A DNA stretch of 64,000 bases from a virus (IMGVR_UViG_3300020417_001527:21790-85789), one strand, 5' to 3'; counted from the first letter of the stretch, positions 8,238 to 53,856 are shown. A program made the numbers and translations. The notes: generated by a model not told the origin, from the sequence alone.

Positions 8238-8923
8238 TGAATAGAAAAATACGCAACGCACTAGAACAGTTCTGTGTAGAAACGTTTGGTGTGAAACCAG
8301 ATTACAACGCAATGGAACCAATGGTTGATGCATTAGACCGACAGGTGTTGCACAATTATTTTGGTAACACAGGTAATTGGCGGCCTGACAATAAAAATTT
8401 CAAAGCATCAGGTGAACAGTTAATAGAAAAAGTAAACGCACTTAGACCCGATTCTGTGTTGGACATAGGTTGTGGTTATAATCTACTCAAAGGTAAAATT
8501 AAAAATCTATGGGGTATAGATCCATACAACACAGAAGCTGATGAAGTTATTGATTTGATGGATATAAGATTAACCGGCACCAATGATGTGGTGTTGTGTT
8601 TAGGATCAATAAACTTTGGCGATCAAACAGAAATTGAACGCAAGGTTGCAAAAGCAGTCAGTTTGTGTAAGCCTGGCGGTTCGTTGTTTTGGAGAGTAAA
8701 TCCTGGACTTACACACAGCAGAGCTGGTGCTGAATGGGTTGACTTTTTTGAATGGAATGAAGATAAGCTACGAGAGTTAGCAATCAAAAATGATTGTGTA
8801 TGCGTTGATGTACAAGAAGATCGTTGGCGAGACGACGGAGAAGGTTTGAGATATTATGCTCAATGGAATCGGAACAGAAATACAGAAGCAGAATCCGTTT
8901 CATTACAGAATATGGGAAGGTAA
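8237..8923 (+). CDS. class I SAM-dependent methyltransferase (paralogue 1 of 4)
   Basis: VLDIGCG, GIDP, CLGSINFG, KPGG. Confidence 0.85.
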   Translation: MNRKIRNALEQFCVETFGVKPDYNAMEPMVDALDRQVLHNYFGNTGNWRPDNKNFKASGEQLIEKVNALRPDSVLDIGCGYNLLKGKIKNLWGIDPYNTEADEVIDLMDIRLTGTNDVVLCLGSINFGDQTEIERKVAKAVSLCKPGGSLFWRVNPGLTHSRAGAEWVDFFEWNEDKLRELAIKNDCVCVDVQEDRWRDDGEGLRYYAQWNRNRNTEAESVSLQNMGR

Positions 8924-10238
8924 TTTTTTACCTGAAGATTTGTATGACAAACTAGAACGTATGGTTTATGCTTACGAGCCCGAGCCAGACAGTCTGCTTA
9001 ATGCTGAAGATTATGTGTACCCAATGGGTCAAGCACATCTGTCGCCAGGACTGGATGGCTTTCGTGATCTGTGGTACATGCCTGCAAACAAACAATGGTT
9101 GTTGGATCTGCTGGATTGGCCGGCTGACCTAGATGCACAACTGGAAATTAAAATACACATTGATTCCAAAGGCTTTTATCAAAGACCACACAGAGATTTA
9201 AAAGATATTCGTTCACCTCGTGGATACGGCACTCTGCAGATATACTTTGGTTCAGATGAATTGGAAGACACAGGTGCATGGGTACTGGATGCTGATCACA
9301 ACAAAGTTAGGCAGATTCCTTTTCAACGCAACACAGCCTGGTGTTTTAAAGCCACTGATATATCGTGGCATTCAGTGGATCGAATTGAACGTGAAGTAGA
9401 CAGACGCTCCATAATGATTAATGTATTTTCAAGAACAAGAATGTCAGACACCACGCCTGTTGCTGTTACATCAGAAGTAAAACGTAATCCTGTAAAATTT
9501 AAATCGTTTAGAGATCACACTCGTATTGATTTTTGTATAACCACATACTGTCAATCAAAGTGTCCTACCTGTCCTAGAACAGATGCAGAAACACTTGAAC
9601 TTGCAAACTTCATAACATTACAACACATGCCATTTCCTGTGTGGATGGATGTGATTGACAAAGTTGATTGGTCAACAAAAACCATACAGTTTTGTGGTGA
9701 ACATGGTGATCCAATGATGCACCCTGACATAGAAAAATTTATACTGGCAGGCACAGCTCGTGCTTGGCAAGTGATGATAAACACCAATGGTGGCATACGC
9801 AAAAAAGAATGGTATCGCGAAATATACGACAAAGTTGAAGACCAGGATTATGGTGAGCTGTGCTTTACATTTGCCATTGATGGACTAACACAAGAGACCA
9901 ATGAAAAATACAGAATAGATGTTGATTTTGATCGTGCATGGGAAAACTTCTTGACTTGTGCTGAAAATCATAGTAGACTTACGTATTGGGACTTTCTTGT
10001 GTTCGAACACAACTGGCATGAACTTGAAGATGTTATACGCATTGGCAAAGAGCTGGAAGTGAACATGGACATCAAAGTCAATCGCGGCGAACATGGCTTG
10101 CTGGTCAGTGATGAAGGCAAACAGCATGTGAGAAACATACTTGGCATTGATGTTGATGCAGAAGAACAACAGATTGTGGATATACAGGATGCAAAAACAG
10201 TAGCACTATCCAATCTCATGGAGCAGAGCAAACTATGA
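8856..10238 (+). CDS. 2OG-Fe(II) oxygenase / radical SAM fusion protein
   Basis: N-half PHRD...WHSV...RRS (HxD...H, RxS); C-half CQSKCPTC, GEHGDP, NTNGG, FAIDG in one frame. Confidence 0.85.
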   Translation: MLNGIGTEIQKQNPFHYRIWEGNFLPEDLYDKLERMVYAYEPEPDSLLNAEDYVYPMGQAHLSPGLDGFRDLWYMPANKQWLLDLLDWPADLDAQLEIKIHIDSKGFYQRPHRDLKDIRSPRGYGTLQIYFGSDELEDTGAWVLDADHNKVRQIPFQRNTAWCFKATDISWHSVDRIEREVDRRSIMINVFSRTRMSDTTPVAVTSEVKRNPVKFKSFRDHTRIDFCITTYCQSKCPTCPRTDAETLELANFITLQHMPFPVWMDVIDKVDWSTKTIQFCGEHGDPMMHPDIEKFILAGTARAWQVMINTNGGIRKKEWYREIYDKVEDQDYGELCFTFAIDGLTQETNEKYRIDVDFDRAWENFLTCAENHSRLTYWDFLVFEHNWHELEDVIRIGKELEVNMDIKVNRGEHGLLVSDEGKQHVRNILGIDVDAEEQQIVDIQDAKTVALSNLMEQSKL

Positions 10239-10564
10239 AAAAGGTTATCTGTGAAGCAATGAAAGGCAAAGAAATTGATATTGATATCAATTTTAAGATG
10301 TGGCCTTGCTGTATGTATCAAAATATATTTGCAGAATTTGGCAAGACTGGAGATCCATACATAGACTCTCTGCCGGCAGATTGGAATGATACACGAGTAC
10401 ACGGCATTGACAAAATATTAAGGCACTATGCATACACAGAACATTTCAATGACAAGAGTTGGACAGATGAAAAGAAGTGTTCTCCTGTGTGCTATGAAAA
10501 ATGTGCAGAAGGCGGTGAAATGCATTTGAATCATGCACCGTTAAATTTAGATGGCAAAGATTAG
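10235..10564 (+). CDS. stand-alone SPASM/Twitch-like Fe-S domain protein
   Basis: C...WPCC...CYEKC; ATGA overlap with upstream radical SAM. Confidence 0.7.
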   Translation: MKKVICEAMKGKEIDIDINFKMWPCCMYQNIFAEFGKTGDPYIDSLPADWNDTRVHGIDKILRHYAYTEHFNDKSWTDEKKCSPVCYEKCAEGGEMHLNHAPLNLDGKD

Positions 10565-11432
10565 ATTAATGAATGTGCCTAAAAGGCAACTGGGAAAATT
10601 TAGATTTGTAGAAAAGAAAGATATCACAGATCGTTTTGTGTTGCCACAGTGGTGGCGACTGCCCGAATCAGTGAGATGGTCACACACAGCTCGTAACTAT
10701 CAAAAAAGTTATGATGCATGGACGGCCGAGTTTACATTTGATACTCGCAAATACACAGGACAATGGTTGGTAGACTACATTCAGCAACGTGATCCCAATG
10801 GGCTTGTGCTGGATGTTGGTTGTGGATCTAATCCTTACAAAGGTAAGATTAAAAATTTAGTAGGTATGGAGCCAGGCGATTGGGGCAGTAAAGATTTACA
10901 ATGGGATATTATGGGTCATATATACAAGTACGTGGAAGACAACAAATGGGATTGGCTACTTGCAATAGGTCCTCTCAATCATGGTGATACAAATGAAATT
11001 ACTGAAATGCTCACCACCATGCATGGTTGTCTTAAACCAGGTGGTAAACTAGTATGTTTGGTCAAGCCAGCCAATTGGGCTCATCTCAAAGTTGACCCAT
11101 GGAGAGAAAACAGAGGCTTGTGCTATCCGTGGATGAAAGAAAGTATTTACAGATTTGGTGCTCAACAAGATTTTGAACTTGAACTTGCTCCTGTGCTGGA
11201 TGGCACAGATCTTGGCAAACTCACAGATGAAAAATTACAAAAACTTGCTGACATTGAACCATGGGAACACACTCTAAATGGTGCACCACCAGTGGAGACT
11301 GAAGTGCAAGACGGAGACATGTACTCGCAATGGGAAGCGGTACAACGGGAAATAAAACGCAGGAAAGACACACCTGATGCACCCAGCGAAGTTATAAGAC
11401 AGCGTTGGTTTTGGATCTGGAGGAAGTTATGA
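10551..11432 (+). CDS. class I SAM-dependent methyltransferase (paralogue 2 of 4)
   Basis: VLDVGCG, IGPLNHG, LKPGG, C-terminal RWFWIWRK. Confidence 0.85.
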   Translation: MAKIRLMNVPKRQLGKFRFVEKKDITDRFVLPQWWRLPESVRWSHTARNYQKSYDAWTAEFTFDTRKYTGQWLVDYIQQRDPNGLVLDVGCGSNPYKGKIKNLVGMEPGDWGSKDLQWDIMGHIYKYVEDNKWDWLLAIGPLNHGDTNEITEMLTTMHGCLKPGGKLVCLVKPANWAHLKVDPWRENRGLCYPWMKESIYRFGAQQDFELELAPVLDGTDLGKLTDEKLQKLADIEPWEHTLNGAPPVETEVQDGDMYSQWEAVQREIKRRKDTPDAPSEVIRQRWFWIWRKL

Positions 11433-11453
11433 TTGTGTTAAGCAGAAGGAATC

Positions 11454-13685: not shown

Positions 13686-14313
13686 CGGCATATTGAAACG
13701 TTTGAAAGAACGTTTTGAACAGCAACACGAAGTACGCAAAAGATCACTTGCGTTACACAGGACACTCAGCGGAAGAAAACTGGCAGAAGAAATAGCAGAA
13801 AGCAATCCTACGCTGGTTTTAGATCTTGGCTGTGGCAGTAACGAGTTCAAAAAGATAGTGCCAAATGTTATTGGTGTAGATGTTGCAGAGCTTCCTGAAG
13901 TAGATTTTAAAATGAGCATACAAAATTTTCACAGACGCAAGCCTTTCAAAGAACGTACTGCTGATTGGATTCTGTGCTTTGGACCTTTCAATTATGGCGG
14001 TTCAAAATGGGCCACAGAAATTGGTGAATGTATGAGTTACTACTTGGCAGAACATGGCACCATAGTGTGTCATACTCATCCTACCAACAGTGAAATAGAC
14101 TGGACAGAAGAAAACATAACTACATATGGAAAAGAATTTGGCTTTGTGACAGAAAGTGTACAGATAGGTCACACAGATATTATGACCATGTCCATGGAAG
14201 AACTGGATATTCAACAGGAAGTTGCATCACGTTCTCCTGATATTGCAATGGAATTATCGTTGGGCAAGGATCTTATAAGACCGATGGTGGTATGGCGATG
14301 GAAACACAAGTAA
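13675..14313 (+). CDS. class I SAM-dependent methyltransferase (paralogue 4 of 4)
   Basis: VLDLGCG, GVD, CFGPFNYG, C-terminal VVWRWK. Confidence 0.8.
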   Translation: MNSNGILKRLKERFEQQHEVRKRSLALHRTLSGRKLAEEIAESNPTLVLDLGCGSNEFKKIVPNVIGVDVAELPEVDFKMSIQNFHRRKPFKERTADWILCFGPFNYGGSKWATEIGECMSYYLAEHGTIVCHTHPTNSEIDWTEENITTYGKEFGFVTESVQIGHTDIMTMSMEELDIQQEVASRSPDIAMELSLGKDLIRPMVVWRWKHK

Positions 14314-14750
14314 AAGAAATTACATGGGACACCTGTAAAAAGATATGGGTACATCATCTTTGGAAGGGCAGAAAAGATATCAAAACAATGAGTAGCATGG
14401 CATCTGCCACTGAAACTGATATGGAAATTTATAAGAAATACTTTCCTTATTTCTTTGGTGCTTATGTGGATGGAAAGTTAGCAGGTGTTAATTCAGGACA
14501 TAAAACTTCAGAAACAAATTTTCGTTCTAGAGGATTATATGTGCTGGAAGAGTATCGTAGATTAAACGTTAGCACAGATATATTACAACACACAATAGAT
14601 ACTGCACGTGATATGGGCTGTACCATGTGTTGGACTTTGCCTCGTGAAACAGCATTGCCGGCCTATGAAAAGGTTGGCTTTGTAAAAATGAGTGAATGGT
14701 TTGCTACAGATACCAGTGAAAGTAACTGTTATGCAGAGGTACAATTATGA
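14292..14750 (+). CDS. GNAT-family acetyltransferase
   Basis: RGLYVLEEYRRLNVS motif A, AYEKVGF. Confidence 0.8.
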   Translation: MAMETQVKEITWDTCKKIWVHHLWKGRKDIKTMSSMASATETDMEIYKKYFPYFFGAYVDGKLAGVNSGHKTSETNFRSRGLYVLEEYRRLNVSTDILQHTIDTARDMGCTMCWTLPRETALPAYEKVGFVKMSEWFATDTSESNCYAEVQL

Positions 14751-17686: not shown

Positions 17687-19060
17687 CTACTCACACTTTA
17701 TCCCTAGTCCTCGTACCTGATTGTTCCAGGCACTCTGTGCAAATGGTCCTTTGCCTTCATAGGCACGTTTGTAATACCATTTCTCACTGCCATGCTTTTC
17801 TCTTTCGCTGTAGTCCAAACCCAAGGTGTATTCCATAACATAGTAGTCTGCCAATGGGTGTATATACCTTCTTTCATGATCTGTGCTATAGCCACGTATT
17901 CTAAATACTTTGTGATGCAGGCAACCTACATTGACCAAACAGTTTCGTTGATACTGTTTGTCTGTGCTGGTCCAGAAACCCCAACGATCCAGCGTTTCTC
18001 GTACATCATCAACAATGCGTTTCCAAGCCATTTCTGCCATTACCTCATCACGTTCAAACTGGTCACTGAAACTACTGCAATTTAGAGTTGTGGTTTTAAA
18101 ATTTTCAACATGACTACACATCATGCTGGCAATTTCTTCCGCTTTCCATTCTCCATATCTGTTTACATAGTAGCTCAGTCTTTTACCGGCTTCTCCATAA
18201 CTAATTATGTTCCCAACTTCACCGGTTATTACTGTGCCGTCTATTTTGTGTCTGTTCATGGTTTGATACTTTACCAGCCATGATGAATCGTTAAATTCAT
18301 ATTCCAATGGCGGATCATACGCAGGTGGCTTTATGTTGGCTTGTACATTTACAGGTGCAATACCTATCATTTCACCATTAAAAAGTGCATCGTGATATTC
18401 ATTGTGTTTGCCTTTTTTATGTGTTATGGTGTAAAAGTCTATGTGTTTTTGATATCCTAATTGTGCCAATGCTGAGGCAACCACAGCTGAATCTCTACCA
18501 CTGCTGAAAAGCATATTGATAGGCTGATCATAATACAATCTACGATCATAAATTTTTCTAATATTATTATCTAATAGCTCTTTGTATAGGTTGCCGTCCC
18601 ACACATAGCCTTTGGGTCGTGCAATGTCTGAGTATCTATGCTGTACACCATTGTGTACATAATGTTCTGGTTTAACTGTGAGAATATCATCATATGGTGT
18701 GTGTTCGCCTATAGCATAACAAAAACCAAACATAGAACGCTGTAATTCATACACACCATTTTTAATTCTGTAGTGTGCATCCTTCATCGGGTGTGTAGCA
18801 TCTTGCACCCACAATGACAAGTTGTGAAATATTTTTTCTGTGTCTGTGTAGAATAGTGGAGTTTCTGCTAGATGATTTACACATGCCCACCAGTTATCAT
18901 CTTCAATGTAAACAAATGCAAAGGAACCACGCAGTTCAATGGGAAACTGACCTTGGCGTAAACTTTCATATACTATACCTGGTGATAGATTTGCATCACC
19001 CCACCAATAAAAGTCTGGGTACAGTTCTTCAAATTTGTTATGTTGATTTATGAATATCAA
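17687..19060 (-). CDS. asparagine-synthetase-like ATP-dependent amide ligase
   Basis: LRGSFAFV (Ntn-like), PP-loop LFSSGRDS, ITGEVG, HPLAD, EKWYYK; no N-terminal Cys. Confidence 0.7.
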   Translation of the reverse strand: MIFINQHNKFEELYPDFYWWGDANLSPGIVYESLRQGQFPIELRGSFAFVYIEDDNWWACVNHLAETPLFYTDTEKIFHNLSLWVQDATHPMKDAHYRIKNGVYELQRSMFGFCYAIGEHTPYDDILTVKPEHYVHNGVQHRYSDIARPKGYVWDGNLYKELLDNNIRKIYDRRLYYDQPINMLFSSGRDSAVVASALAQLGYQKHIDFYTITHKKGKHNEYHDALFNGEMIGIAPVNVQANIKPPAYDPPLEYEFNDSSWLVKYQTMNRHKIDGTVITGEVGNIISYGEAGKRLSYYVNRYGEWKAEEIASMMCSHVENFKTTTLNCSSFSDQFERDEVMAEMAWKRIVDDVRETLDRWGFWTSTDKQYQRNCLVNVGCLHHKVFRIRGYSTDHERRYIHPLADYYVMEYTLGLDYSEREKHGSEKWYYKRAYEGKGPFAQSAWNNQVRGLGIKCE

Positions 19061-20204
19061 ACGTTTTATCTCCAGGCCATAATGGCAGTTGAGTACCAGG
19101 TGCTCGTTTTGGTATTTTTGAGTCAGCTGAACTTACACAACTATCACTGATGCATGGCATTGGAGTATCGAACAGATTGAAACCTGTTTCTATGTTGCCG
19201 AGCGGAACATCCGCACAACTGTAGGAACGTTTGATACTTCCGTCAGGCTCTCGGATAATAATACTACGATATCCTGCACTACATTCCCATCCTTTAAATT
19301 TGTTAAAGTTAAACGCATTGAATCTCTCTGCTTGATCCATGTACCATGTTTCACCATTGGCATCTTTGAATTCAACCTGCATGTTCCACGGAACAGATTT
19401 GTCGTCTCGTTGATCTATTTCTGTGGGAATTTGAAACTGTGGTCTTGGACGGTCACTCCAAACAGCTTTCGTGTCGGTGTAGGCTCTTTGCGGCATTCCG
19501 TTGTAGAGTCGCTTGAGCATATCCCTAGTGTATCCATCAACCACTTTTGACGCAGTCGGATCCGACTGGGGTTTAAGTGTGACGTTGATTCCTTGTTCGT
19601 GGAAGAAGAGGGCGTTGTCCCAGTCTCGTTCAAATTGGTCGGGAACCATAACCATGTTAATGGTAATCTGTACATCGTGTTCTTGACACAGGATAAGTTT
19701 GTCGGCAAACTCCTGCATCTTCTCCTTTGTGTTTACGTGTTCAACGTGTAGACTACTAGTTATGCTCGCACGATGAAGTGGTTTTACTATTTCCACATAC
19801 TGCTCAAACCATTTTAATGGCCTTGAACAGTTTGACGTCATGTGGACACTAGTATAATTAGTGTTGCTGACATCAGAAGCCAAATGCCCAAGGATGTCCA
19901 AGTATCCTGGGTGGAAAGTAGGCTCACCGCCAGATAAAGAAAAATGAAAACTGTTAAAATTATTAGCACGAGCTTGTCTTTTTATCTCATCGATCGTAGC
20001 ATTAATGAGGTGTGTGGGCCTGTGATCTTTTTTATCTGATCTGGCGTATGGCCAACAATAACTGCAACGGTAATTGCAAAAGCGACCAAGAAGCCAACTG
20101 ACAGTAAACATGTCTCTATAGAGCATCGTTCTTTGACCCACCCTAACAAGTTCGTCAAAAGGTATTTTAGTAAAGTCATAATCGCTCCATTTTAGTTCTG
20201 ACAA
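19038..20204 (-). CDS. radical SAM protein with C-terminal Twitch-like domain
   Basis: CNYRCSYC, SGGEPT; C-terminal CSAG...C...C...C. Confidence 0.92.
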   Translation of the reverse strand: MSELKWSDYDFTKIPFDELVRVGQRTMLYRDMFTVSWLLGRFCNYRCSYCWPYARSDKKDHRPTHLINATIDEIKRQARANNFNSFHFSLSGGEPTFHPGYLDILGHLASDVSNTNYTSVHMTSNCSRPLKWFEQYVEIVKPLHRASITSSLHVEHVNTKEKMQEFADKLILCQEHDVQITINMVMVPDQFERDWDNALFFHEQGINVTLKPQSDPTASKVVDGYTRDMLKRLYNGMPQRAYTDTKAVWSDRPRPQFQIPTEIDQRDDKSVPWNMQVEFKDANGETWYMDQAERFNAFNFNKFKGWECSAGYRSIIIREPDGSIKRSYSCADVPLGNIETGFNLFDTPMPCISDSCVSSADSKIPKRAPGTQLPLWPGDKTFDIHKST

Positions 20205-22783: not shown

Positions 22784-23294
22784 TTGAAGGTGCCTCTACT
22801 ATCCATTTTACATAACTGGCCGCATCGGGTATGCTCATGCATTTGCGTCCAGGGTGTTTGTCTTCATTGTTTTCTAGTGTGCCAAAACTGATAAGGCTAA
22901 CACGTGGCACAGTTTTTTCACTCCACACACTCTGTAATGCCAGTGATTGACAGTAGCTCTGCAGAGCTTTCTTTTCCTGTTGGTATATCCACGAGCTACC
23001 TTTGGTAACTCTGTCCACAGTACTGCCAATACACACAATATGTAGTGATTTTCCTGCCGTTTCTGCCAACTTCCATACTAGTTCTAGTAGTAGTGATTGG
23101 CGAAAGTGCCATAATGCACTATTATTAATAAAAACATCGTACTCAATGGCCTTTTTTGCTACTGCTTCCATATTCATTCTAGTTTCTAAGTCGCAACCAC
23201 TGTCACGACTGACAAAGTCAGCTTTAGGAAACACAGATGCAAGTCCTTTAGCCAATCCCTCTTTGGGATTGCCTGTGATAAAAATTGATTTCAT
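22740..23294 (-). CDS. short-chain dehydrogenase/reductase (SDR)
   Basis: FITGNPKEGLAK, FINNSA, IGS, YQQEK (YxxxK). Confidence 0.8.
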   Translation of the reverse strand: MKSIFITGNPKEGLAKGLASVFPKADFVSRDSGCDLETRMNMEAVAKKAIEYDVFINNSALWHFRQSLLLELVWKLAETAGKSLHIVCIGSTVDRVTKGSSWIYQQEKKALQSYCQSLALQSVWSEKTVPRVSLISFGTLENNEDKHPGRKCMSIPDAASYVKWIVEAPSNVNINEISLDRIQR

Positions 23295-24463: not shown

Positions 24464-25431
24464 ATAAAGTTCCTGTAGTCAGTTCCGTGTATGCTGTCTA
24501 ATATTTCACTTTGTTCTATCAACTGTTGTTTTAATTCTTCGTCTTCTAGTGCCGTTGGTCGCATAAATGCAGGGTTTATCACAGGCGTAGACACAGAATG
24601 TTCAAGTCTGTGCAGAGTGCACCAGCGTGTCACATCATCGATGTTGTTCCTGTTAAACACCATTGGCAATATACTCACAAACAAATGTGTATTGGCAGGT
24701 TTGCGTTTATTGAATTGTAACACATTCTGTTGTGTGGTCAACCAACTTGATCCTGCACGTATAAATTCATATCTACTTCCTATTGCATCAATGCTGACAT
24801 TAACTGTAACAGATTTAAACTTTTTAAACAGACTGTTCCATGCTGTTATGTCATGAGATCCATTTGTAATAATTTCTAGCGTAACTGCTGGTGCTATATC
24901 TTCTTCTATGAGTGTTTCAATTATGCGTTTTACTTGAGGTATCATAAAAGGTTCACCACCAGTGAACTTTACTGTTCGAGCATCATACATCAACTCAGTG
25001 AACGATTCAGCTTCTTTGGCCCAGCGTGTGTCATGTTTGTGAGTGTAGTATTCTGCCAATTCCTGTTCGCCAACGTTGCGAACAATGTTTGCCCATGTAC
25101 TAGAGCTGGTTTGGTTACACATTCTACAAGCAAAATTACAGGTGTTGTTTATTTTCAAATCCCAAAAATTTATGCCATCTGCATGTTCTAGTATTTTATT
25201 GTAATGTGTTCTCAAACTTGCTCCGGTTTGTTGTTCTGATATTCTACATTCTTCACATTCATCTAGCCAAGAAGTCTTACTTTGTTCACACCATTCTGCA
25301 TGTCGTGTTTGCCAATCATCTTTCCAATATAGATTTGCTGTTCCTTCTTTAACATTAAATGCACAACATGGCCTCACAGCACCTGTGGGTCCAATGGTAA
25401 CACCATGTTTAAATATCAAGCATTCCGCCAC
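24460..25431 (-). CDS. radical SAM protein with N-terminal Twitch/SPASM-like domain
   Basis: C...RPCC...CEEC then CNFACRMC, GGEP, TNGS. Confidence 0.92.
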   Translation of the reverse strand: MAECLIFKHGVTIGPTGAVRPCCAFNVKEGTANLYWKDDWQTRHAEWCEQSKTSWLDECEECRISEQQTGASLRTHYNKILEHADGINFWDLKINNTCNFACRMCNQTSSSTWANIVRNVGEQELAEYYTHKHDTRWAKEAESFTELMYDARTVKFTGGEPFMIPQVKRIIETLIEEDIAPAVTLEIITNGSHDITAWNSLFKKFKSVTVNVSIDAIGSRYEFIRAGSSWLTTQQNVLQFNKRKPANTHLFVSILPMVFNRNNIDDVTRWCTLHRLEHSVSTPVINPAFMRPTALEDEELKQQLIEQSEILDSIHGTDYRNFI

Positions 25432-38848: not shown

Positions 38849-39893
38849 ACACTCCTAGTTTACCAGATTTAATACTGTCTTTGTTCCAACTGTTTTTTAT
38901 ACTACCAAGTATACCACTTTCAAAAACTGTTTCTAGTCCGTGTACTTTACAATCAATGACATCTTTGCCACCTACACCATCTATGTGATCCCAAATTTGT
39001 TCTACTTTAGGATCCAACTGCCACCATTTGTACATGCGTCCTGCTGTCCAACAGCAAGGCAACAGCAATCCTTCTGCTGTGATATAGATGTTCTTTTCTT
39101 CTGCTACCTTGCATTTAATTTTACATGAATCGTAATAATCCATCATTGAACCAAATTGATTTTTAATTTCTTCTTCTTTGGCAAGTGCTTTGTTTTGATA
39201 TGCTTCATTTTTTGGTTTTGCCAGAGTTGCAGTATCTTCGCCTTTTCTGTTCTGTGCTTGATGTGTTTCTTTGCCTGTGTTTTTTGCTGTACTAAAAAAC
39301 CTGCCAGTTTTCTTTGCTCTAAACTTTTCAAAACCCCAAGCCATTGCCATGCCTTCTGCGTCTTCCACTTGATGTTCATTGTAGTCAAATATGATGTAAT
39401 CCCATCTAGCTCTACCACCTGCATCTATAAAACTTGTAAATGAACGCTCTACAATATCCCAACGCACATTCTGTCTGTACATGTGATTTGTGTCTTCAAG
39501 TCCATCCAATGAGAATATAACTGCACCCATACGACCATAAACTCGTGCAAGTTCACGCCACCAATCTGGATCTTTTGCTCCGCCGTTTGTGTTCATGCTC
39601 AGCCAAATTTTAGGATTGTGTTGTCTAAAGTATTCAAATATTTCTAGTGTGTCACGTGCCACAATAGGATCACCCAAGTTGCCACACATATACATTGTAT
39701 TAAGTTGTTGTATAAATTTTGGTTCAAATATTGCTTTAGCATCATCTAGTGTAAGTTCAGCATTTGTGATATGTCGATTGTCGCGACCGCCATTTTCATT
39801 GCGATCACACATAGGGCAAGCCGCCTGGCACCTTTGTGTAACTTCCAAATGTACCATTTTAATATCGTTGTAGCTATACACTTTGTTTACCAA
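38796..39893 (-). CDS. radical SAM/SPASM-like protein
   Basis: CQAACPMC, GNLGDP, NTNGG, LPCCW...CAQKC. Confidence 0.93.
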   Translation of the reverse strand: MVNKVYSYNDIKMVHLEVTQRCQAACPMCDRNENGGRDNRHITNAELTLDDAKAIFEPKFIQQLNTMYMCGNLGDPIVARDTLEIFEYFRQHNPKIWLSMNTNGGAKDPDWWRELARVYGRMGAVIFSLDGLEDTNHMYRQNVRWDIVERSFTSFIDAGGRARWDYIIFDYNEHQVEDAEGMAMAWGFEKFRAKKTGRFFSTAKNTGKETHQAQNRKGEDTATLAKPKNEAYQNKALAKEEEIKNQFGSMMDYYDSCKIKCKVAEEKNIYITAEGLLLPCCWTAGRMYKWWQLDPKVEQIWDHIDGVGGKDVIDCKVHGLETVFESGILGSIKNSWNKDSIKSGKLGVCAQKCGDKFDAFAEQFA

Positions 39894-41379
39894 GCAACCT
39901 TTCTATAATTGCACTTTCATGTTTTTGTGTTTTGTTGTTAAACTGATCTACACTTATGATGCTGGGCTCATCATCCATCAACACAGCCATTTCTGGAAAT
40001 GTTTTACAGAAGTCTAAGTTTCTAGTTTTATCAATGAGTCGTATGTATTCTCTAAACTGTGGCATACGTCTGCTCCAGTCTTCACTTTTCATAAAATTGA
40101 TCATGCCACGCATACGTTCTATGCCGTGACTTGCATTCATAAAATCGTCCTTGGTTACTTTCCCTCGGTACCAACTTGGTATTCCTAATTCCCAATTTTC
40201 TTCCCACCATGTATAAAACTTTTCATACTTGATTTCTGTTTGCTGTTTGAACCATAATGGCAATGTCTTTACATTCAAAGGAGCAGGCCAATAAACAAAA
40301 TGTGTGTTCACACTTCCTGCTGAAAAAGGCCACATGTTTACTTTTGTAAAGCCTTGTTGCAGTTTCCATTTGAAAAAATCTGGCAGATAATATATGTTCA
40401 ATGCATTAACGGCACAGGCCAGAGTTACTTCAACATTGTCTGTGGTTTCGTTGTTAAGTTTCCATATCTGTCTAACTTGATGATTCCAATCGCTGGGGTA
40501 ACGTATGTAATCATTCATTGCACCTATGCTGTCTAAACTGTAATGAAAACGCACCAGTTTAAAATGACTCCACAGTTCAAACAAATCATCACGCCATTCA
40601 ACAGCATTTGAATTGTAACGCAGTTCTAAATTAGGTGCATGTCCACTTTCAATTATTTTTTCTAATATTGTGTAGTGTTCATCCATCACAGTTGATTCAC
40701 CACCAGCAAAATAAAGTTGTAGCATGTTTGGTATCTGTTTCCAAAACTGCTCCCAAAACTTGTCATTGCTTTTGTGCCAATTGTAACTGGCGTTAAAGTT
40801 TTTACCTTTGTTTTCCCAATTCCATATTTCTTTAAGTTCAGGATCTTTCAGTTGTGGATACATTTTGTTCCACTCTTTGACCCAACCTGATGAATCATGT
40901 GGTGAACACATAACACAGGCAAGTTGACATTTAGTACCCATACGCAAATCTATGTAACGCAGTTTGGTTGGTATGCTACCATCTGTTTCTGTTTCTTTGA
41001 GCATTTCATCAATATCAATGCGTTTGCTCCAATAGTTTGTTTCCCATTGGCGTTTGCTGTGATGTCCTGCATCTTCTTCTTTGTAGCACTTCATACAGGA
41101 AGGAGGTCGCTGTCCTTTCAACATCATCTGTCGTGTGCCACGCATGTACGAATTGTTCCACGAACTTTCAAGGTCAGAGTTGTTTAAATTGGCTGGTATA
41201 CCCTCCTCTGTACGCAGTACACCCACCTGTCCTCCAAACTCTTTGTCGTTGGTTACACCAACACTACTGGCGTTTGCTGTACAGCATACACGCATAGCAC
41301 CGTCAGGACGAGTGCTTAAATGTATCCATGGCAACACACAAAATGTATCGCTGGGTGGTGTAAAACGTTTCTTGGTCAT
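39874..41379 (-). CDS. radical SAM protein with N-terminal Twitch/SPASM-like domain
   Basis: FCVLPW...VCC...CMKC then CQLACVMC, AGGES. Confidence 0.93.
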   Translation of the reverse strand: MTKKRFTPPSDTFCVLPWIHLSTRPDGAMRVCCTANASSVGVTNDKEFGGQVGVLRTEEGIPANLNNSDLESSWNNSYMRGTRQMMLKGQRPPSCMKCYKEEDAGHHSKRQWETNYWSKRIDIDEMLKETETDGSIPTKLRYIDLRMGTKCQLACVMCSPHDSSGWVKEWNKMYPQLKDPELKEIWNWENKGKNFNASYNWHKSNDKFWEQFWKQIPNMLQLYFAGGESTVMDEHYTILEKIIESGHAPNLELRYNSNAVEWRDDLFELWSHFKLVRFHYSLDSIGAMNDYIRYPSDWNHQVRQIWKLNNETTDNVEVTLACAVNALNIYYLPDFFKWKLQQGFTKVNMWPFSAGSVNTHFVYWPAPLNVKTLPLWFKQQTEIKYEKFYTWWEENWELGIPSWYRGKVTKDDFMNASHGIERMRGMINFMKSEDWSRRMPQFREYIRLIDKTRNLDFCKTFPEMAVLMDDEPSIISVDQFNNKTQKHESAIIERLLGKQSV

Positions 41380-41387: not shown

Positions 41388-41681
41388 TTACTGATTCATT
41401 TTCTCTACACGCATTGACTTACTGCAATTTTCAACACACAATGGAGGTGGTGTAGTGTTCCAATTATCTGTGTTCCAATGCTCTGTGAAAGGTTTGCTTT
41501 TTAATATAGCAGTCAATTTGTGTTTGTTAATATCATTCCAATCGCTGGGCAGATTATCTATGTAGTCGTCTCCTGTACAGCCAAATCTATTTGCGGCCGC
41601 ACTATAAAAACAGCAAGGCCATACACGACCTTCTGTGTCTAATTTTATTTCTTTTTCACGCAGAGCTAGACAATCAATCAT
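41388..41681 (-). CDS. stand-alone SPASM/Twitch-like Fe-S domain protein
   Basis: C...GRVWPCC...CVENC; GDDYIDNLPSDWND near-identical to the 10235 ORF. Confidence 0.72.
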   Translation of the reverse strand: MIDCLALREKEIKLDTEGRVWPCCFYSAAANRFGCTGDDYIDNLPSDWNDINKHKLTAILKSKPFTEHWNTDNWNTTPPPLCVENCSKSMRVEKMNQ

Positions 41682-42364
41682 TGCAATATGCTCCGTGCTT
41701 GTTCTATCATATCGTTTGCCTTTGATATATTTGCATCAGCAATCAATCCATATTCTCTATCTTGGAATTTAAAATCAATGCCTATGTTATACTGTTTAGC
41801 AATTCTGGCCGCTTCTGGTATCTGTTGCCAGTTCCAATCAAATATAAGAAAGTCCCATGAACAACCTCCTTCATGACAATGTTGTGCAAATGTTATCATG
41901 TTATCCATTGCACGTTCAAAGTTAACTCGCTTTCTGTACAGATCATTTACTTCTGCTGTGGTTCCATCTATAGAAAAAACCAAGTGTCCAAACGGATCTA
42001 ATGTTTCTGCTAGTTTAACATAGAAGTCTTTGTTTCGCAAGCCTCCATTTGTGTGAACAAGAACTGTGTTTTCCTGTCTGTGTCTAACATAACGAATAAT
42101 ATCAAATATCTGTGGGTGCATCATTGGATCGCCAAATTCACCACACAATTTTATTTTGTAATCTTTGCCATGTGGAATATTATTTTTGATCCATCGTATA
42201 ACAGTTTCAAATGGAACATGTTCCATGCTCAGCAGTTCACAAGTTTTAAAAGGAGTTTTGAAAAAATCTTCAAATCTACCACAGCTCGGACAACCGGCTT
42301 GGCATTGATTTGTTATGTAAACATCTAATACTTTTAGTTGTTCACGCCAGTCAATATTAGACAT
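41678..42364 (-). CDS. radical SAM protein (core domain only)
   Basis: CQAGCPSC, GEFGDPMMHP, HTNGG, FSIDG. Confidence 0.9.
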   Translation of the reverse strand: MSNIDWREQLKVLDVYITNQCQAGCPSCGRFEDFFKTPFKTCELLSMEHVPFETVIRWIKNNIPHGKDYKIKLCGEFGDPMMHPQIFDIIRYVRHRQENTVLVHTNGGLRNKDFYVKLAETLDPFGHLVFSIDGTTAEVNDLYRKRVNFERAMDNMITFAQHCHEGGCSWDFLIFDWNWQQIPEAARIAKQYNIGIDFKFQDREYGLIADANISKANDMIEQARSILQ

Positions 42365-49481: not shown

Positions 49482-49802
49482 CTAAACGTCTTGGCTTAAC
49501 TTTTTCATTGCTAAAATTTGCATGAATTGGTCCTTATCTTGAGGACTAGCAAACCAAATTCTGTGAATGTATTCTTGTACATTGGGTTCTGTAGGGTGTT
49601 CGTAACCCTCTTTTGCATGAACTTCTTCAATGTAATAGTAATTACTTATATTGATTTCATTCATGATTTGTTGATCAAAACCTTCGCTTTGAACAATAAC
49701 TCTATTTTGCATTAATTTAAACCAAAGCTCTGTGCCAGCAAGACTAGTTACATCTTCTTCGCTGAGAGCAAAACCTTGTTCGTCAACTCTTTTTATTTTC
49801 AT
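49482..49802 (-). CDS. hypothetical protein
   Basis: ORF track; ATGA coupling. Confidence 0.6.
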   Translation of the reverse strand: MKIKRVDEQGFALSEEDVTSLAGTELWFKLMQNRVIVQSEGFDQQIMNEINISNYYYIEEVHAKEGYEHPTEPNVQEYIHRIWFASPQDKDQFMQILAMKKLSQDV

Positions 49803-51202
49803 GCGGCCTCATCTTCAAAATGCACAGTTCTGCCAAACGGTGCTTCTAGTGTTTTATCATAATGACTGTGGATAACAAACAATGTATCACAGTAATTAGG
49901 ATCTCCCCATTCACCAAATGGCATACCATCTGTGAACATAATCAACTGTTGAGGCTCAATATCATTTTCTTTCATGTATTTCCAATTGGACATGAAGTCT
50001 GTGCCTCCACCACCAAGCAATTCATACTCAGTAATTTCTCTGCCGTCATCACTTGTAAATTCATCATAGCCATACACTTCTGTATCGAATGTCCAAATTC
50101 TCAACTTGTATTGTGCGAACTGTTGCATCATGCCATGTATTTCACTGATAAACATCATGCCCTGTTTGTTGGTAATACTACCACTCATGTCCATACAAAT
50201 ACAAACGTCAATTTCTTGATCTCTTTCCATACCAGGCATAATAGCATCTGAGTGCCAACCTCTTCGTGTGGGCCTCATGAATGTGTAATTGTTTCTTACA
50301 CATGATTCAATGTTTGCATTTACCAATTCCTGCCACTTCAGTTTAGGTGCAGTCATTTGATCAATCATTCGCTTGATACCAGCTGGTACATCTCCAGCAC
50401 CTGCGTTCTGAGCCGCATTTATCATTGCTTCTTTTATTTCATTAGCAATCTGTTGTTTCTCTTCTTTGCTGAGCTTAGGCTTGCCTTTACCGGGCTTGTC
50501 ACCTTTGCCGTCACCTTCTTCTTCGCCTCCAGAACCTTCTTTAACTTCAATGTTACCATCTTCATCAATCATGATGTGTACATCAAGTGTTTGCAATTCT
50601 GGTGGAAGTTCACCTTTGTCTTTCAATTCTTTGAGATGATTGTAAACTTCAAAACTGTTCCAACCTTCATACTGGTAATCTAATAAACCAACTGCTGGCA
50701 TTTCACCAACACCTGTTTTTACAAGATCCATGTTAATAATATAATCTGCGGCAATATTAAACAGCCTTTTGTCATCATAATCTGCCATGGGCGTCATGTG
50801 ATCATAAACACAATGCATCACTTCATGTGCAACCACAAAAGTAATTTCTGCCTGTGTCAACACTTTGAAGAAGTGTGGATTGTAGAACATGCTACGACCG
50901 TCTGTGGCGGCAGTAGGACACCATGCATCTGTGATCTCAACCAGTGTTAATCGTATAGCCAGTTGAGCAAAAAACGGATGTTTAAAAAGCATCTGCACTC
51001 TGGCACGAATAACTTTTTCTCTGATATCATTGCGTTCTGCATCTGTTAGTTCAGCATCATAGTCCACGTTTTTATACTTGGCCATGACTGCTTCTCGCAT
51101 CTTATCTTCTTTGGTGTGTGCATCTTTCATATCTGAACCCATAGCTTGATCAAATATCTGTCCTTGCATTTCTGCTTCTTCTTGTGCTACACTTTTTCCC
51201 AT
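49799..51202 (-). CDS. metallopeptidase-like (HExxH) + VWA domain protein (DUF2201-like)
   Basis: TAATDG, HEVMH, DMSGS MIDAS, GGGGTDF, FTDG. Confidence 0.88.
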   Translation of the reverse strand: MGKSVAQEEAEMQGQIFDQAMGSDMKDAHTKEDKMREAVMAKYKNVDYDAELTDAERNDIREKVIRARVQMLFKHPFFAQLAIRLTLVEITDAWCPTAATDGRSMFYNPHFFKVLTQAEITFVVAHEVMHCVYDHMTPMADYDDKRLFNIAADYIINMDLVKTGVGEMPAVGLLDYQYEGWNSFEVYNHLKELKDKGELPPELQTLDVHIMIDEDGNIEVKEGSGGEEEGDGKGDKPGKGKPKLSKEEKQQIANEIKEAMINAAQNAGAGDVPAGIKRMIDQMTAPKLKWQELVNANIESCVRNNYTFMRPTRRGWHSDAIMPGMERDQEIDVCICMDMSGSITNKQGMMFISEIHGMMQQFAQYKLRIWTFDTEVYGYDEFTSDDGREITEYELLGGGGTDFMSNWKYMKENDIEPQQLIMFTDGMPFGEWGDPNYCDTLFVIHSHYDKTLEAPFGRTVHFEDEAA

Positions 51203-51228
51203 AATCTCTCTTTCCTATGTTATACTTA

Positions 51229-51260
51229 TATAGTATGACATCTTGCTTCTTTTGTCAACC
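51229..51260 (-). promoter_or_regulatory. sigma70-type promoter TTGACA-17-TACTAT with 17-bp shared element
   Basis: -35 at 51253-51258, -10 at 51230-51235; CAAGATGTCATACTATA identical to 52776-52792. Confidence 0.65.
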
Positions 51261-51650
51261 ATTAAAATGTGTTAATTTAAAAAAAGCTCTAATTTGTTCA
51301 TCATGTATATAAACGTGAGCTTCATTCAGTTCCATTCGCCCTGTGTACTGTTCTTGTTCCTGTGTGTAAACTTCGTAATCTAATCTGCTGACATTGTTTT
51401 TTGCAAACCATTGGTGCCATTGTCGGAGTAGATCATGTTTGCCAGTAACATTTTTAAACACCAATGGTTTGACATTCTTTTTCCATTCATCTTTGTATAA
51501 TGCAATTTCTAATGCTTCTGGAATAGTTTTCCAGTTGTCACGCCAGGCATCTCCGTAAAGACGCCTGACCACTCTTTCCCTTAATTGGGTTTTATTCATC
51601 ATCAGTTCCAAGGATGAGTTTACCATATCTCTTGAAAAACTCAGGAGCAT
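51255..51650 (-). CDS. hypothetical protein
   Basis: ORF track; true start likely near 51602. Confidence 0.55.
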   Translation of the reverse strand: MLLSFSRDMVNSSLELMMNKTQLRERVVRRLYGDAWRDNWKTIPEALEIALYKDEWKKNVKPLVFKNVTGKHDLLRQWHQWFAKNNVSRLDYEVYTQEQEQYTGRMELNEAHVYIHDEQIRAFFKLTHFNG

Positions 51651-52749
51651 GTTTGTTCTTCTTTGGGTGAACAGGTAATTTGTAAGTGTTCAACATCACC
51701 CTACCACTAGCAAGAACCAATTCAGTTTCAAAGTTCTTCATCATAAAAGCAAGAACATTATCCATTGCTTTGGTAAAAGTTTCTTCTTTACCATTACGTT
51801 CAGTAGTTTCAAGAAGCTCTTTCAACTCGTATGCAATCGAAGTTGACAAAGAATACTTTGCACTAACATCAGTATCTGATGCAACTTCAGTAACCTTACC
51901 TGATATAATATCAGTTGGGTTAGGCATTTTAGCACTCATCTTCATGTGAGTGTTGAACTTAAGAGCAAGTCCTTCACCAACATAAGCACTCACCATGTCA
52001 ATGATATCATTGTCTGTAAAGTCAGTATCTTCGATACCTTCAAGGTTATCGCTCACAAACTCCCAAGTTCTAGGAGTAGCAAAGCCTCGTGAACTTGAAG
52101 TAGGATCGAAGGTGTACAAGTCTTGCTTGTGACAAGTAAGATAACCAACCACATCAGGATGAATAGGAGTTGGTCTCTTTGTACCAACCTTCACTGCCCA
52201 ATCCAACCATGGAAGAAATTCACACTTCAATTCAAAGTGTCCAAAACGATTCTCCAACGGCTTAGGCATTCTGTAAGAAACACCTTTGTCTGTTTCTCTG
52301 TTACCGGCCGCGATAACAACCACATTGTCAGGCAGTTTGTACTGTCCAACTCGTCTGTTAAGCACTAGCTGATAACTTGCGGCCTGTACTGCTGGTACAG
52401 CCTGGTTAAATTCATCTAAGAACAGTACGACAGTATCATACTGTTTAGCAACTTCTTCTGAAGGAAGATCAACTGGATCAGCCCAATCCATCTTTCCTGA
52501 TTCTTTGTTATAATAAGGAACACCACGAATATCTGTGGGTTCAACTAAACCTAATCGCATGTCAAACATACATGCTTTACCAAGATCACCACTATCGACA
52601 ATCTGTTCAATAAGCATAGATTTACCAATACCTGGTCCACCCCATACAAACAGTGGTCGTTTCAGTTTAAAAGCACGTAACACCTGCTTCTTCAACTGTA
52701 CAGTATTAACTGTTCTGCGATCTTCTATCATTGTTGCTGGCATATTCAA
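51592..52749 (-). CDS. MoxR-like AAA+ ATPase
   Basis: WGGPGIGKS Walker A, LFLDEFN Walker B, AAGNR, NRF, TPRTW. Confidence 0.9.
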   Translation of the reverse strand: MNMPATMIEDRRTVNTVQLKKQVLRAFKLKRPLFVWGGPGIGKSMLIEQIVDSGDLGKACMFDMRLGLVEPTDIRGVPYYNKESGKMDWADPVDLPSEEVAKQYDTVVLFLDEFNQAVPAVQAASYQLVLNRRVGQYKLPDNVVVIAAGNRETDKGVSYRMPKPLENRFGHFELKCEFLPWLDWAVKVGTKRPTPIHPDVVGYLTCHKQDLYTFDPTSSSRGFATPRTWEFVSDNLEGIEDTDFTDNDIIDMVSAYVGEGLALKFNTHMKMSAKMPNPTDIISGKVTEVASDTDVSAKYSLSTSIAYELKELLETTERNGKEETFTKAMDNVLAFMMKNFETELVLASGRVMLNTYKLPVHPKKNKHAPEFFKRYGKLILGTDDE

Positions 52750-52775
52750 CTCCTATTTTTTTCTACCTACACTAT

Positions 52776-52807
52776 TATAGTATGACATCTTGGTATAAAG
52801 GTCAACC
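52776..52807 (-). promoter_or_regulatory. sigma70-type promoter TTGACC-17-TACTAT with 17-bp shared element
   Basis: -35 at 52800-52805, -10 at 52777-52782; AGGAG RBS downstream. Confidence 0.65.
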
Positions 52808-52824
52808 TTTTTATGCATCTTTTT

Positions 52825-53856
52825 TTAAAAAAATTGTGTTTTTCTTCTGTTTCCATGTCCACCACATTCAACTACACACCTACTGATATAAAGATTGTGT
52901 TCTGTGTTCCAACTATCTGCTAATACTTCTTTATAATACTCGTGATCTAATATTTTGTCAATTGAATTGTGTTTCAAATTGTTCCAATCTGTGCCGTACA
53001 AGGCTTCTAATTCAAGCAGTTTTGCACGACCTTCTGCTTCTCTTATGCTGTCATGATACATATCTCCAAACCAACAACAGGGCCATAATCGTTGATCGTG
53101 TGACACATATGCTTGTCTTTGATGTATCAGTCTACAGTTTATGTCGTCAAATTTAACAGTTTTTAGATTGGACATATTGTTATATACTTGGTGTTTTTTC
53201 CGTGCTTCTGTGTGCAAATTTGAAGTGGTTACTTGGTATGTTTCAGTTGTGTTTTTTCGTTTTACAGTTGTGGTCCACGGCACATAGTTACGAGCAGATC
53301 GACGCAGTCTAAATTCAAAATTAAGTTTTTGTGCCAAAGTTCGTGCATTGTCAATGTCGTGTGCATTGTGATCAAACTCTATGTATTGCCATCTAGCTCT
53401 ACCACCTGTAGATGCATATGCTGTCATGTTGTTCAACAGTTTTTGCCAATCTACATTAACACGATACATATGATTTGTATCTGTATAGCCGTCTACATTG
53501 AATACTATGCATAATCTTTGTTCATATGATTCACTCAGTTTGCCCATGGTATTCCAAAATGATTCAGTTTGCATTCCGCCATTGGTATCCAAATAAACTT
53601 GATCAGCATTATTTTCTAATAGATATTCACAGATAGGCAGTATGTCACGAGCCATGCCTGGATCACCATACACACCTGAAAATCCAAAATGACGTTCATT
53701 GATAACTTCTGGAGGAAATATGTGTTTAAATTCTTCTAGTGTGATTTCCAACATATCAAGATCAGGATGTGTGTCGCCATCTAGTGTTCGCGAACAACCT
53801 GGGCAACGAGCATTGCATTTAGAAGTGATTTCTATTTCAAACTGTACTGGTAACAT
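52825..53856 (-). CDS. radical SAM/SPASM-like protein
   Basis: CNARCPGC, GVYGDP, DTNGG, WPCCW...CVVEC; paralogue of 38796. Confidence 0.92.
   Translation of the reverse strand: MLPVQFEIEITSKCNARCPGCSRTLDGDTHPDLDMLEITLEEFKHIFPPEVINERHFGFSGVYGDPGMARDILPICEYLLENNADQVYLDTNGGMQTESFWNTMGKLSESYEQRLCIVFNVDGYTDTNHMYRVNVDWQKLLNNMTAYASTGGRARWQYIEFDHNAHDIDNARTLAQKLNFEFRLRRSARNYVPWTTTVKRKNTTETYQVTTSNLHTEARKKHQVYNNMSNLKTVKFDDINCRLIHQRQAYVSHDQRLWPCCWFGDMYHDSIREAEGRAKLLELEALYGTDWNNLKHNSIDKILDHEYYKEVLADSWNTEHNLYISRCVVECGGHGNRRKTQFF

Follow-up and report, generated by a model that had tools for sequence, protein, structure and literature searches.

We analyzed a 64,000-nt window of DNA, bases 21790-85789 of the 85,789-base virus record IMGVR_UViG_3300020417_001527 in the IMG/VR database, in which genes for radical S-adenosylmethionine (SAM) enzymes are arrayed together with genes for other tailoring enzymes. 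The source is best explained as an uncultured marine jumbo myovirus, in which the window would form one portion of a tailoring island that spans at least 64 kb. The record encodes 20 radical SAM enzymes, far more than are known from isolated phages; 12 belong to the N_Twi family, and a cassette that includes members of this family also occurs on chromosomes of Bdellovibrionota. We propose, with a probability of about one half, that the enzymes of the island tailor a sugar-like scaffold step by step through radical chemistry; the product would most likely be a heavily modified amino or guanidino sugar attached to a glycoconjugate at the surface of the infected cell or the virion. Gene coordinates are in window numbering, counted from the first letter of the 64,000-nt stretch.

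The radical SAM array and its enzyme families

The original prediction had counted 13 radical SAM genes with a CxxxCxxC motif, leaving aside queE (57537-58436). One such motif is indeed present in each of the 13 frames, at 8856, 19038, 23291, 24460, 29574, 30731, 32734, 36588, 37829, 38796, 39874, 41678 and 52825. In 500 residue shuffles of the 81 proteins of the window, CxxxCxxC proteins arose with a mean of 0.15 and a maximum of 3. All 13 frames match the radical SAM superfamily PF04055, 10 of them above its gathering cut-off of 29.5 bits and three below it (8856, 27.3 bits; 39874, 23.0 bits; 52825, 22.4 bits). We accepted 39874 as a radical SAM gene because it scores 410.7 bits with the NCBIfam model NF033640, and 8856 and 52825 because they are clear homologues of 41678 and 38796, respectively. 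The array exceeds the predicted count: the 21.8 kb of the record upstream of the window contain seven further radical SAM genes, six of them consecutive, bringing the record to 20 intact genes, and the record begins within the array. CheckV rates the record as 25% complete, which implies a genome of ∼340 kb. Genes overlap in 67 of the 90 same-strand pairs of the record, and the predicted long coupled operons are therefore real. No polyketide synthase (PKS) or nonribosomal peptide synthetase (NRPS) gene was found on the contig, in agreement with the description of a tailoring island as large as a biosynthetic cluster but without either scaffold enzyme.

All-against-all comparison sorted the 20 genes into families A (12 genes), B (three genes) and C (four genes) and a single gene upstream of the window for a B12-binding, B12-dependent enzyme of 725 aa. 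Family A, with seven genes in the window, has a cysteine-rich domain ahead of the radical SAM core and corresponds to NF033640 (N_Twi_rSAM). Its 12 members have whole-protein scores of 185.5-410.7 bits with this model, and nothing in 14 control genomes scored above the curated cut-off of 170 bits. In an alignment of the 12 proteins, C9, C77 and C80 are invariant and C27 is near-invariant, ahead of C126/C130/C133 and a following GGE. Positions 11-87 of the profile, in its N-terminal part, align to the C-terminal twitch domain of BtrN, the 2-deoxy-scyllo-inosamine dehydrogenase (E = 3.7e-7), and Pfam places SPASM at residues 9-80. The cysteine pattern and the BtrN alignment together argue that the auxiliary-cluster domain is real and that it sits at the opposite end of the protein from that of BtrN. 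The SPASM/twitch character claimed for the array is supported.

The seven family A genes of the window are all on the minus strand. Related records are cited by handle where needed; G001, G002 and G004 are three of four IMG/VR records that we found with a family A protein. The gene at 39874..41379 (501 aa) has the highest score, 410.7 bits, is 55-58% identical to Bdellovibrionota orthologues and falls into a clade with support of 99. It is followed by 23291..24463 (390 aa, 399.5 bits), which forms a clade with Bdellovibrionota orthologues of 45-48% identity and whose AlphaFold2 (AF2) model has a pLDDT of 72.8. The genes at 36588..37832 (414 aa, 306.5 bits) and 29574..30752 (392 aa, 300.9 bits) are 82% and 85% identical in G001, and the latter is 37-39% identical in Bdellovibrionota, with clade support of 100. 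Bdellovibrionota orthologues also form clades with 32734..33990 (418 aa, 252.7 bits, 32-36% identity) and 30731..31951 (406 aa, 238.7 bits). The remaining member is a short form of 323 aa (24460..25431; NF033640 185.5 bits, PF04055 44.7 bits).

We placed the 12 paralogues of the record in a FastTree phylogeny of 87 N_Twi proteins. They required 11 label changes, equivalent to 11 separate lineages, and duplication within the phage is likely for one pair only. Five of them (23291, 29574, 30731, 32734 and 39874) grouped with Bdellovibrionota sequences with support of 97-100. This placement suggests that the paralogues are old and distinct enzymes that moved as a set. As each represents a separate conserved lineage, they most likely catalyze different steps and are not redundant copies, which fits the earlier proposal that the divergent paralogues perform distinct steps. 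The family is large, with 8,567 clusters at 50% identity (E of 1e-30 or better) and thousands of members in ocean metagenomes, and tandem double N_Twi units of ∼800 aa are common among the database proteins. Among the NCBIfam names, the PDB and the literature searched, there was no characterized NF033640 member with a reaction or substrate. The NF033640 entry itself mentions neither arrays nor phages. We found no paper naming the family, and none on N-terminal twitch arrays, on the Bdellovibrio paralogues or on such arrays in huge phages.

Family B enzymes are viperin/MoaA-like and carry the motif CN[YF]xC[ST]YC near the N-terminus; their best NCBIfam matches are indeed viperin and MoaA, at scores far below the cut-offs. 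Two are encoded in the window, both on the minus strand, at 19038..20204 (388 aa; PF04055 57.1 bits; 60-65% identity to Bdellovibrionota genes) and 37829..38848 (339 aa; 56.4 bits). No family B homologue was found in the isolated phages of the collection. Family C enzymes have the motif CQxxCPxC, and their best NCBIfam matches, again far below the cut-offs, are a tungsten-cofactor maturase, spiro-SPASM and BlsE. Two of the four are unsplit and on the minus strand: 38796..39893 (365 aa; PF04055 36.9 bits), which is 44-48% identical in Bdellovibrionota (12 loci) and distantly matches radical SAM genes of phage CP220, and 52825..53856 (343 aa), which lies outside the main operon and is 28% identical to 38796 over 355 aa (E = 2e-45).

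In the two split members of family C, a core gene is followed by a small cysteine-rich gene. The 228-aa core at 41678..42364 (minus strand; PF04055 38.4 bits) is paired with a SPASM-like partner of 97 aa (41388..41681, minus strand; PF13186 23.1 bits, cut-off 21.5), and G001 keeps the split with a core that is a tandem double. Complex prediction for 41678 and 41388 gave an ipSAE of 0.91, compared with 0.00 for the best control, with runs agreeing in at least 83% of contacts and a partner pLDDT of at least 84; of 78 solved complexes, 51 attain this ipSAE mark, as do 2 of 108 mismatched pairs. As the two proteins are halves of a known architecture, the result may reflect likeness to solved fused enzymes. 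The second pair is on the plus strand. The 460-aa protein at 8856..10238, 36% identical to 41678, appears to fuse a 2-oxoglutarate (2OG) oxygenase-like domain (2OG-FeII_Oxy_3, E = 1e-4, residues 104-189) to a family C core (PF04055, residues 228-395), both matches being below cut-off. Its 109-aa SPASM-like partner (10235..10564) is 42% identical to 41388-41681, and both small proteins match residues 239-335 of the unsplit family C enzyme (52825 in the case of the 109-aa protein). The 8856-10238 frame thereby joins an oxygen-requiring 2OG-like domain with an oxygen-sensitive radical SAM core. In G002, the 2OG part is a separate gene of 193 aa (50% identical), with no radical SAM part behind it.

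Viral origin and a cassette in common with Bdellovibrionota

The four IMG/VR relatives each contain 7-14 N_Twi matches and keep the gene order, so that co-occurrence and synteny, named in the original prediction as a check, extend beyond this contig. Synteny between G001 and the window extends from ∼20 kb to 56 kb, with identities of 40-87%, and G004 has backbone genes in common with the window. These backbone genes, on the minus strand, include a DUF2201 metallopeptidase/VWA protein with an AAA ATPase (49799..52749; orthologues in G001 and G004), the best matches of the ATPase being PA5oct-type jumbo phages (44% identity), and a 5'-3' exonuclease (54930..55910; PF02739, E = 4e-22; 83% identical in G001, 61% in G004). 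Next to the radical SAM block, G004 encodes tail-fibre proteins, a 4,948-aa frame, a baseplate wedge protein (phrog_10646, E = 1e-293), a hub/lysozyme protein and SbcCD, and in both G002 and G004 the island lies directly beside the tail-fibre/baseplate block. The wedge and the giant protein are closest to those of jumbo myoviruses of the SCTP-2, Atu_ph07, Phosso, PA5oct and Rak2 type (25-38% identity).

We therefore accept the viral origin, with only a few percent left for a cellular one, on the basis of the backbone genes, the syntenic relatives and the baseplate, tail and giant proteins of jumbo-phage type, and the claim that this is viral DNA stands. Capsid, terminase and portal genes were not found on the record or its four relatives, all of which are fragments (10-25% complete by CheckV). 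Searches of the five fragments for Terminase_6C and Gp23 were negative; this says little, because the fragments are incomplete and the Gp23 search matched no control genome either. That the contig is cellular DNA misfiled as viral, for example a Bdellovibrionota island, could draw on these missing genes and on the presence of the cassette on chromosomes, but is very improbable given the backbone genes syntenic with G001 and G004 (among them the AAA/VWA pair and the exonuclease), the PA5oct-type affinity of the ATPase, the jumbo-phage-type baseplate, tail-fibre, SbcCD and giant virion proteins of G004 and G002, and the lack of tRNA, rRNA or housekeeping flanks.

The single frames beside the island in G002 (4,014 aa, 56876-68920) and G004 (4,948 aa, 56170-71016) are distant kin of PA5oct/Phosso-type virion structural proteins. 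Contigs of 195-236 kb with close homologues (57-82% identity) exist. When a 10-kb piece was sampled as words, 16 marine DNA runs, drawn from several studies, contained 59-99% of them, so that the phage is widely distributed in seawater. In three studies, parts of the island are matched at 90-99% identity by RNA-library contigs of 150-395 nt; as carry-over of DNA is possible, we did not count them as proof of expression. Three contigs from public metagenome-assembled genomes (MAGs) binned as Crocinitomicaceae, Neisseriaceae and Gammaproteobacteria MED685 (L018, L034 and L070) are syntenic with these phages, and in L070 the synteny extends to the block of tail and giant-protein genes. The three are probably phage DNA that was mis-binned, and we did not use them as evidence of host or cellular spread.

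We also searched cellular genomes, with one genome per species, and identified 65 loci. Most of them belong to Bdellovibrionota MAGs, and some are on contigs as long as 0.9-3 Mb; an earlier search of genome contigs with a single protein query had given no match. N_Twi genes are present in 26 of 121 sampled Bdellovibrionota genomes, and five genomes encode 11-20 each, partly in arrays of up to ∼13 genes in 30 kb. Family B enzymes occur in 29 of the cellular loci and family C enzymes in 12, and there are cellular orthologues of the pyridoxal phosphate (PLP) enzyme 31854, the amidinotransferase, the AspH-type oxygenase and the carbamoyltransferase. Identities to the Bdellovibrionota orthologues reach 55-65% for 39874 and 19038. 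Hence, the cassette is present in a virus but, contrary to what the original wording had implied, is not virus-specific, since it is also found on Mb-scale Bdellovibrionota chromosomes. The commonest neighbour other than radical SAM genes in the cellular loci is a family 2 glycosyltransferase (GT2; 25 members in 15 loci), and a major facilitator superfamily (MFS) transporter recurs in some of them. The conserved core consists of three N_Twi enzymes, the PLP enzyme, the amidinotransferase and the family B and C enzymes, and is a defined unit for enzymology. Its occurrence in abundant marine giant phages and in predatory bacteria points to a widespread pathway.

The amidinotransferase and the PLP enzyme accompany the radical SAM genes in phages and cells. 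The amidinotransferase gene (33965..35023, minus strand, 352 aa) encodes a putative member of the L-arginine amidinotransferase family by full-length similarity to solved members: PDB matches are HsvA (E = 7.1e-24, residues 20-352), StrB1 (7.7e-13), AGAT and SxtG, and identity in Bdellovibrionota is 42-44%. The PLP enzyme (31854..32765, minus strand, 303 aa) has no Pfam match and is shorter than typical fold-type I members. Its AF2 model (pLDDT 94.5) retrieved only PLP enzymes among the top 50 Foldseek matches, the top matches being aminotransferase-type enzymes with a probability of 1.0, and the pyridine-binding aspartate D165 and the Schiff-base lysine K193 are invariant across 28 sequences. 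We classify it as a short, class I/II aminotransferase-like enzyme of fold-type I; it is present in 11 cellular loci.

Related islands and the proposed function

Radical SAM genes in number are on record for the virulent Campylobacter myoviruses CP220 and CPt10, whose 11 and 12 radical SAM proteins were called highly unusual and which contain an exchangeable module of five radical SAM genes and a putative glycine amidinotransferase (Timms et al. 2010, PMC2853527). The CP220 amidinotransferase gp086 is homologous to 33965 (25% identity over 96% of the query, E = 5e-21) and is flanked by radical SAM genes, and CP220 radical SAM genes match families B and C with E values of 1e-5 to 1e-14. The module follows the baseplate genes and is itself followed by two genes of the nucleotide-diphospho-sugar-transferase fold and a PAP2 phosphatase gene. 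However, CP220 has no N_Twi member, its module measures ∼10 kb compared with at least 64 kb here, and it is a chicken gut phage of the Eucampyvirinae, whereas the phages here are PA5oct/Atu_ph07-like jumbo phages of the open sea. The isolated phages of the collection contained no close N_Twi homologue (best match 23% identity).

A second counterpart is the host recognition cluster of pelagimyophages and cyanomyophages, a tail-fibre-adjacent cluster with family 8 glycosyltransferase (GT8), UDP-glucose dehydrogenase (UGDH) and radical SAM cassettes that was proposed to alter the O-chain of the host (Zaragoza-Solas et al. 2020, PMC7029224). As in that cluster, a large variable island lies beside tail-fibre and giant structural genes, a position that is the same in G002 and G004. 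The two differ in that glycosyltransferases are prominent there and almost missing here, and in that the structural genes of our phages are of jumbo type (25-38% identity) and not those of T4-like pelagimyophages. The paper describing the cluster (PMC7029224) does not analyze its radical SAM genes.

The 'undescribed' pathway of the original prediction thus has precedents: the main family is catalogued as NF033640, radical SAM genes with an amidinotransferase gene were published for CP220/CPt10 in 2010 (PMC2853527), and radical SAM cassettes in tail-fibre-adjacent islands in 2020 (PMC7029224). The island most likely belongs with the tailoring islands that adjoin phage tail genes and combine radical SAM with amidinotransferase genes; it stands out by the number of its radical SAM genes and by the dominance of an unstudied family. 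At the level of single enzymes, the twitch auxiliary-cluster domain is homologous to that of BtrN, and it is accompanied here by an aminotransferase and an amidinotransferase, a pairing that aminocyclitol pathways also have. The N_Twi enzymes differ from BtrN, DesII, AprD4 and BlsE in having the twitch domain ahead of the core and not behind it, identities are low, and no equivalog model was matched.

By analogy, the best-supported reading is that the pathway follows the logic of aminocyclitol and amino-sugar pathways. We infer each of its chemical steps. In the N_Twi enzymes, a 5'-deoxyadenosyl radical would abstract hydrogen from an unactivated C-H bond of a small, polar, hydroxyl-rich scaffold, with the auxiliary four-cysteine cluster possibly serving as electron sink. 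The scaffold could be a sugar, a nucleotide sugar, a cyclitol or a sugar residue already present in a glycan, and the outcome could be oxidation to a ketone, epimerization, dehydration or C-C/C-methyl chemistry. Radical chemistry of this kind is performed by BtrN, DesII, AprD4 and BlsE. The PLP enzyme would then aminate the keto position and the amidinotransferase would turn the amine into a guanidino group, while carbamoyl-, acetyl- and methyltransferases, the asparagine-synthase-like ligase and 2OG hydroxylases may complete the decoration. We favour a surface glycoconjugate as the destination of the product because the island adjoins tail-fibre/baseplate genes in related phages, because GT2 genes are neighbours in Bdellovibrionota and because nucleotide-sugar genes lie upstream of the window, where we found two NAD-dependent epimerase/dehydratases, a DegT/EryC1 sugar aminotransferase, a sugar C-methyltransferase and a UGDH-like gene. 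Editing of surface glycans by the cassette, if it occurs, would have consequences for phage host range and for the exclusion of competing phages at sea.

Several results weigh against the tailoring of a surface sugar. No NF033640 member has a known substrate, and a fold search with the N_Twi model gave generic radical SAM matches only (viperin, anSME, SkfB and BlsE), which do not distinguish enzymes that act on peptides from those that act on sugars. Among solved structures, the amidinotransferase comes closest to HsvA, a non-sugar enzyme, and the PLP enzyme resembles class I/II amino-acid aminotransferases and not the DegT sugar aminotransferases. The phage fragments contain no GT2 gene, only one borderline GT8 gene, and neither a nucleotidyltransferase nor Wzx/Wzy. 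About one third of the island genes have no detectable family. Adjacency to tail genes is not visible on this contig, as the record boundary falls inside the array.

A more far-reaching form of the sugar proposal is speculative, and we hold it as doubtful. The N_Twi enzymes might run an undescribed radical chain that builds a hyper-modified amino/guanidino sugar or cyclitol, a common 'invader' tool of giant phages and predatory Bdellovibrionota for envelope editing or marking or for silencing of the prey. Both would have use for such a pathway because both must take over Gram-negative cells. Were this so, the ∼8,600 clusters at 50% identity would represent a large unexplored branch of radical SAM chemistry.

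The same chemistry could instead yield a free small molecule made during infection or predation and unattached to a macromolecule, such as an aminoglycoside-, aminocyclitol- or guanidino-type inhibitor, signal or osmolyte. In joining twitch radical SAM enzymes with an aminotransferase, an amidinotransferase and a carbamoyltransferase, the set parallels the logic behind aminocyclitol and guanidino natural products (BtrN, and the PDB matches to StrB1 and SxtG), and the near lack of glycosyltransferases in the phage fragments, the amino-acid type of the PLP enzyme and the recurrent MFS transporter of some cellular loci would agree with it. However, no scaffold-forming enzyme (cyclase, NRPS or PKS) was found, the phage island yielded no exporter, GT2 genes rank first among the neighbours in cells, and the island lies beside tail-fibre genes in the related phages and CP220. 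We consider a free molecule unlikely; if the cassette does make one, it would add a new class to the virus-encoded natural products.

A peptide or protein substrate, which the original prediction had allowed for, is rather improbable on the present evidence. The radical SAM enzymes would then act in maturation of peptides that are ribosomally synthesized and modified post-translationally (RiPPs) or edit virion or host proteins. SPASM/twitch enzymes often do act on peptides, with anSME, SkfB and SuiB among the fold and sequence matches; AspH-type hydroxylases can act on proteins and GT2 enzymes can glycosylate peptides. But no small open reading frame is conserved across the 62 cellular and four phage loci, although short variable precursors could escape such a comparison, and no RiPP equivalog scored above its cut-off (best 15-48 bits, cut-offs 265-650). 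There is also no RiPP recognition element (RRE) domain, as the N-terminus is taken up by the twitch domain. For a 125-aa gene (11454-11831), a likeness to nitrile hydratase leader peptide (NHLP) precursors was considered, but neither NCBIfam nor the PDB supported it, and in G002 other genes take the place of this gene.

A further reading is a modified nucleotide or nucleoside, either a hypermodified base of the phage DNA or a nucleoside-type compound, which we hold to be improbable. In its favour, the window encodes a QueE-like protein, two phosphoribosyltransferases, purA and pyrF, and UGDH-like genes are present. Viperin and MoaA, to which family B is similar, and BlsE, which family C weakly resembles, all act on nucleotides or nucleosides. 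These similarities are all far below the family cut-offs, though, and the nucleotide genes, which are outside the conserved cassette, are of a kind that large phages commonly carry as auxiliary genes. Moreover, no gene for tRNA-guanine transglycosylase (TGT) or DpdA was found in the record or its four relatives, and in Bdellovibrionota chromosomes the cassette stands beside GT2 genes.

Accessory and other genes of the island

The radical SAM genes had been described as mixed with a range of accessory enzymes. The amidinotransferase, carbamoyltransferase, GNAT acetyltransferase, asparagine-synthase-like ligase, 2OG oxygenases and PLP enzyme of that list were found, whereas the methyltransferase matches in the window are weak and below the Pfam cut-offs, no short-chain dehydrogenase/reductase (SDR) was found within the window, and the plural 'glycosyltransferases' comes down to one borderline GT8-like gene (4145..4858, minus strand, 237 aa; PF01501 24.2 bits, cut-off 24.3). 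The carbamoyltransferase is of the NodU/CmcH type (1390..2952, plus strand, 520 aa; PF16861, E = 1.3e-51; PF02543, E = 3.9e-33) and has homologues in seven cellular loci. The GNAT acetyltransferase is encoded at 14292..14750 (plus strand; PF00583, E = 2.5e-10) and the asparagine-synthase-like amide ligase at 17687..19060 (minus strand, 457 aa; PF00733, E = 5.6e-7; 56% identical in G002). Besides the fused domain of 8856, there are two 2OG oxygenases, an AspH/LpxO-type enzyme with orthologues in Bdellovibrionota loci (25409..26164, minus strand, 251 aa; PF05118, E = 4.6e-14) and one encoded at 62672-63532, and a weak match to a KdoO-like oxygenase (35056..35907, plus strand, 283 aa; PF11004, E = 0.0019, below cut-off) with an orthologue in locus L024.

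The partner of the AspH-like gene (27363..28886, minus strand) encodes a conserved protein of 507 aa with no recognized fold and no Pfam or PDB match, 79% identical in G001. Its domain is elsewhere fused to AspH or to N_Twi units, and a 1,413-aa database protein in which it is joined to two N_Twi units ties it to the radical SAM enzymes. Between the two genes, in the middle of the radical SAM operon, is a phosphoenolpyruvate (PEP) carboxykinase gene (26164-27363; PF01293, E = 5e-91), which at 399 aa encodes a shorter protein than usual and is missing at this place in G001. Two families without known identity that are common with Bdellovibrionota are encoded at 5735..7383 on the plus strand, the first (5735-6439) with a conserved D-x-D and the second (6436-7383) with a Rossmann methyltransferase-like motif. 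A GT-A reading of the 5735 family was rejected, as hhalign comparisons with a GT2 protein and CP220 gp088 were not significant (probability ∼1%), though the D-x-D stretches were the part that aligned. PDB sequence searches with 21752, 27363, 43732, 5735 and 6436 gave nothing usable.

The remaining observations concern further single genes. The QueE-like gene (57537-58436) has the N-terminal signature of QueE and weak PDB matches, to QueE only, and in its product a long insert separates the second cluster cysteine from the third. An adenylosuccinate synthetase gene (61462-62670; PF00709, 514 bits) adjoins a phosphoribosyltransferase gene and the 2OG oxygenase gene, and at 234-662 lies a gene for a small P-loop kinase whose N-terminus is APS-kinase-like (PF01583, E = 1e-7). 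The region 46055-48200 combines genes for orotidine monophosphate (OMP) decarboxylase and the tricarboxylate transporter subunit TctA, the latter with a homologue of 43% identity in G001. Finally, a gene of the fatty acid desaturase family (15711-16472; PF00487, E = 8e-13) is 64% identical in G002 and has a 25% match in G004.

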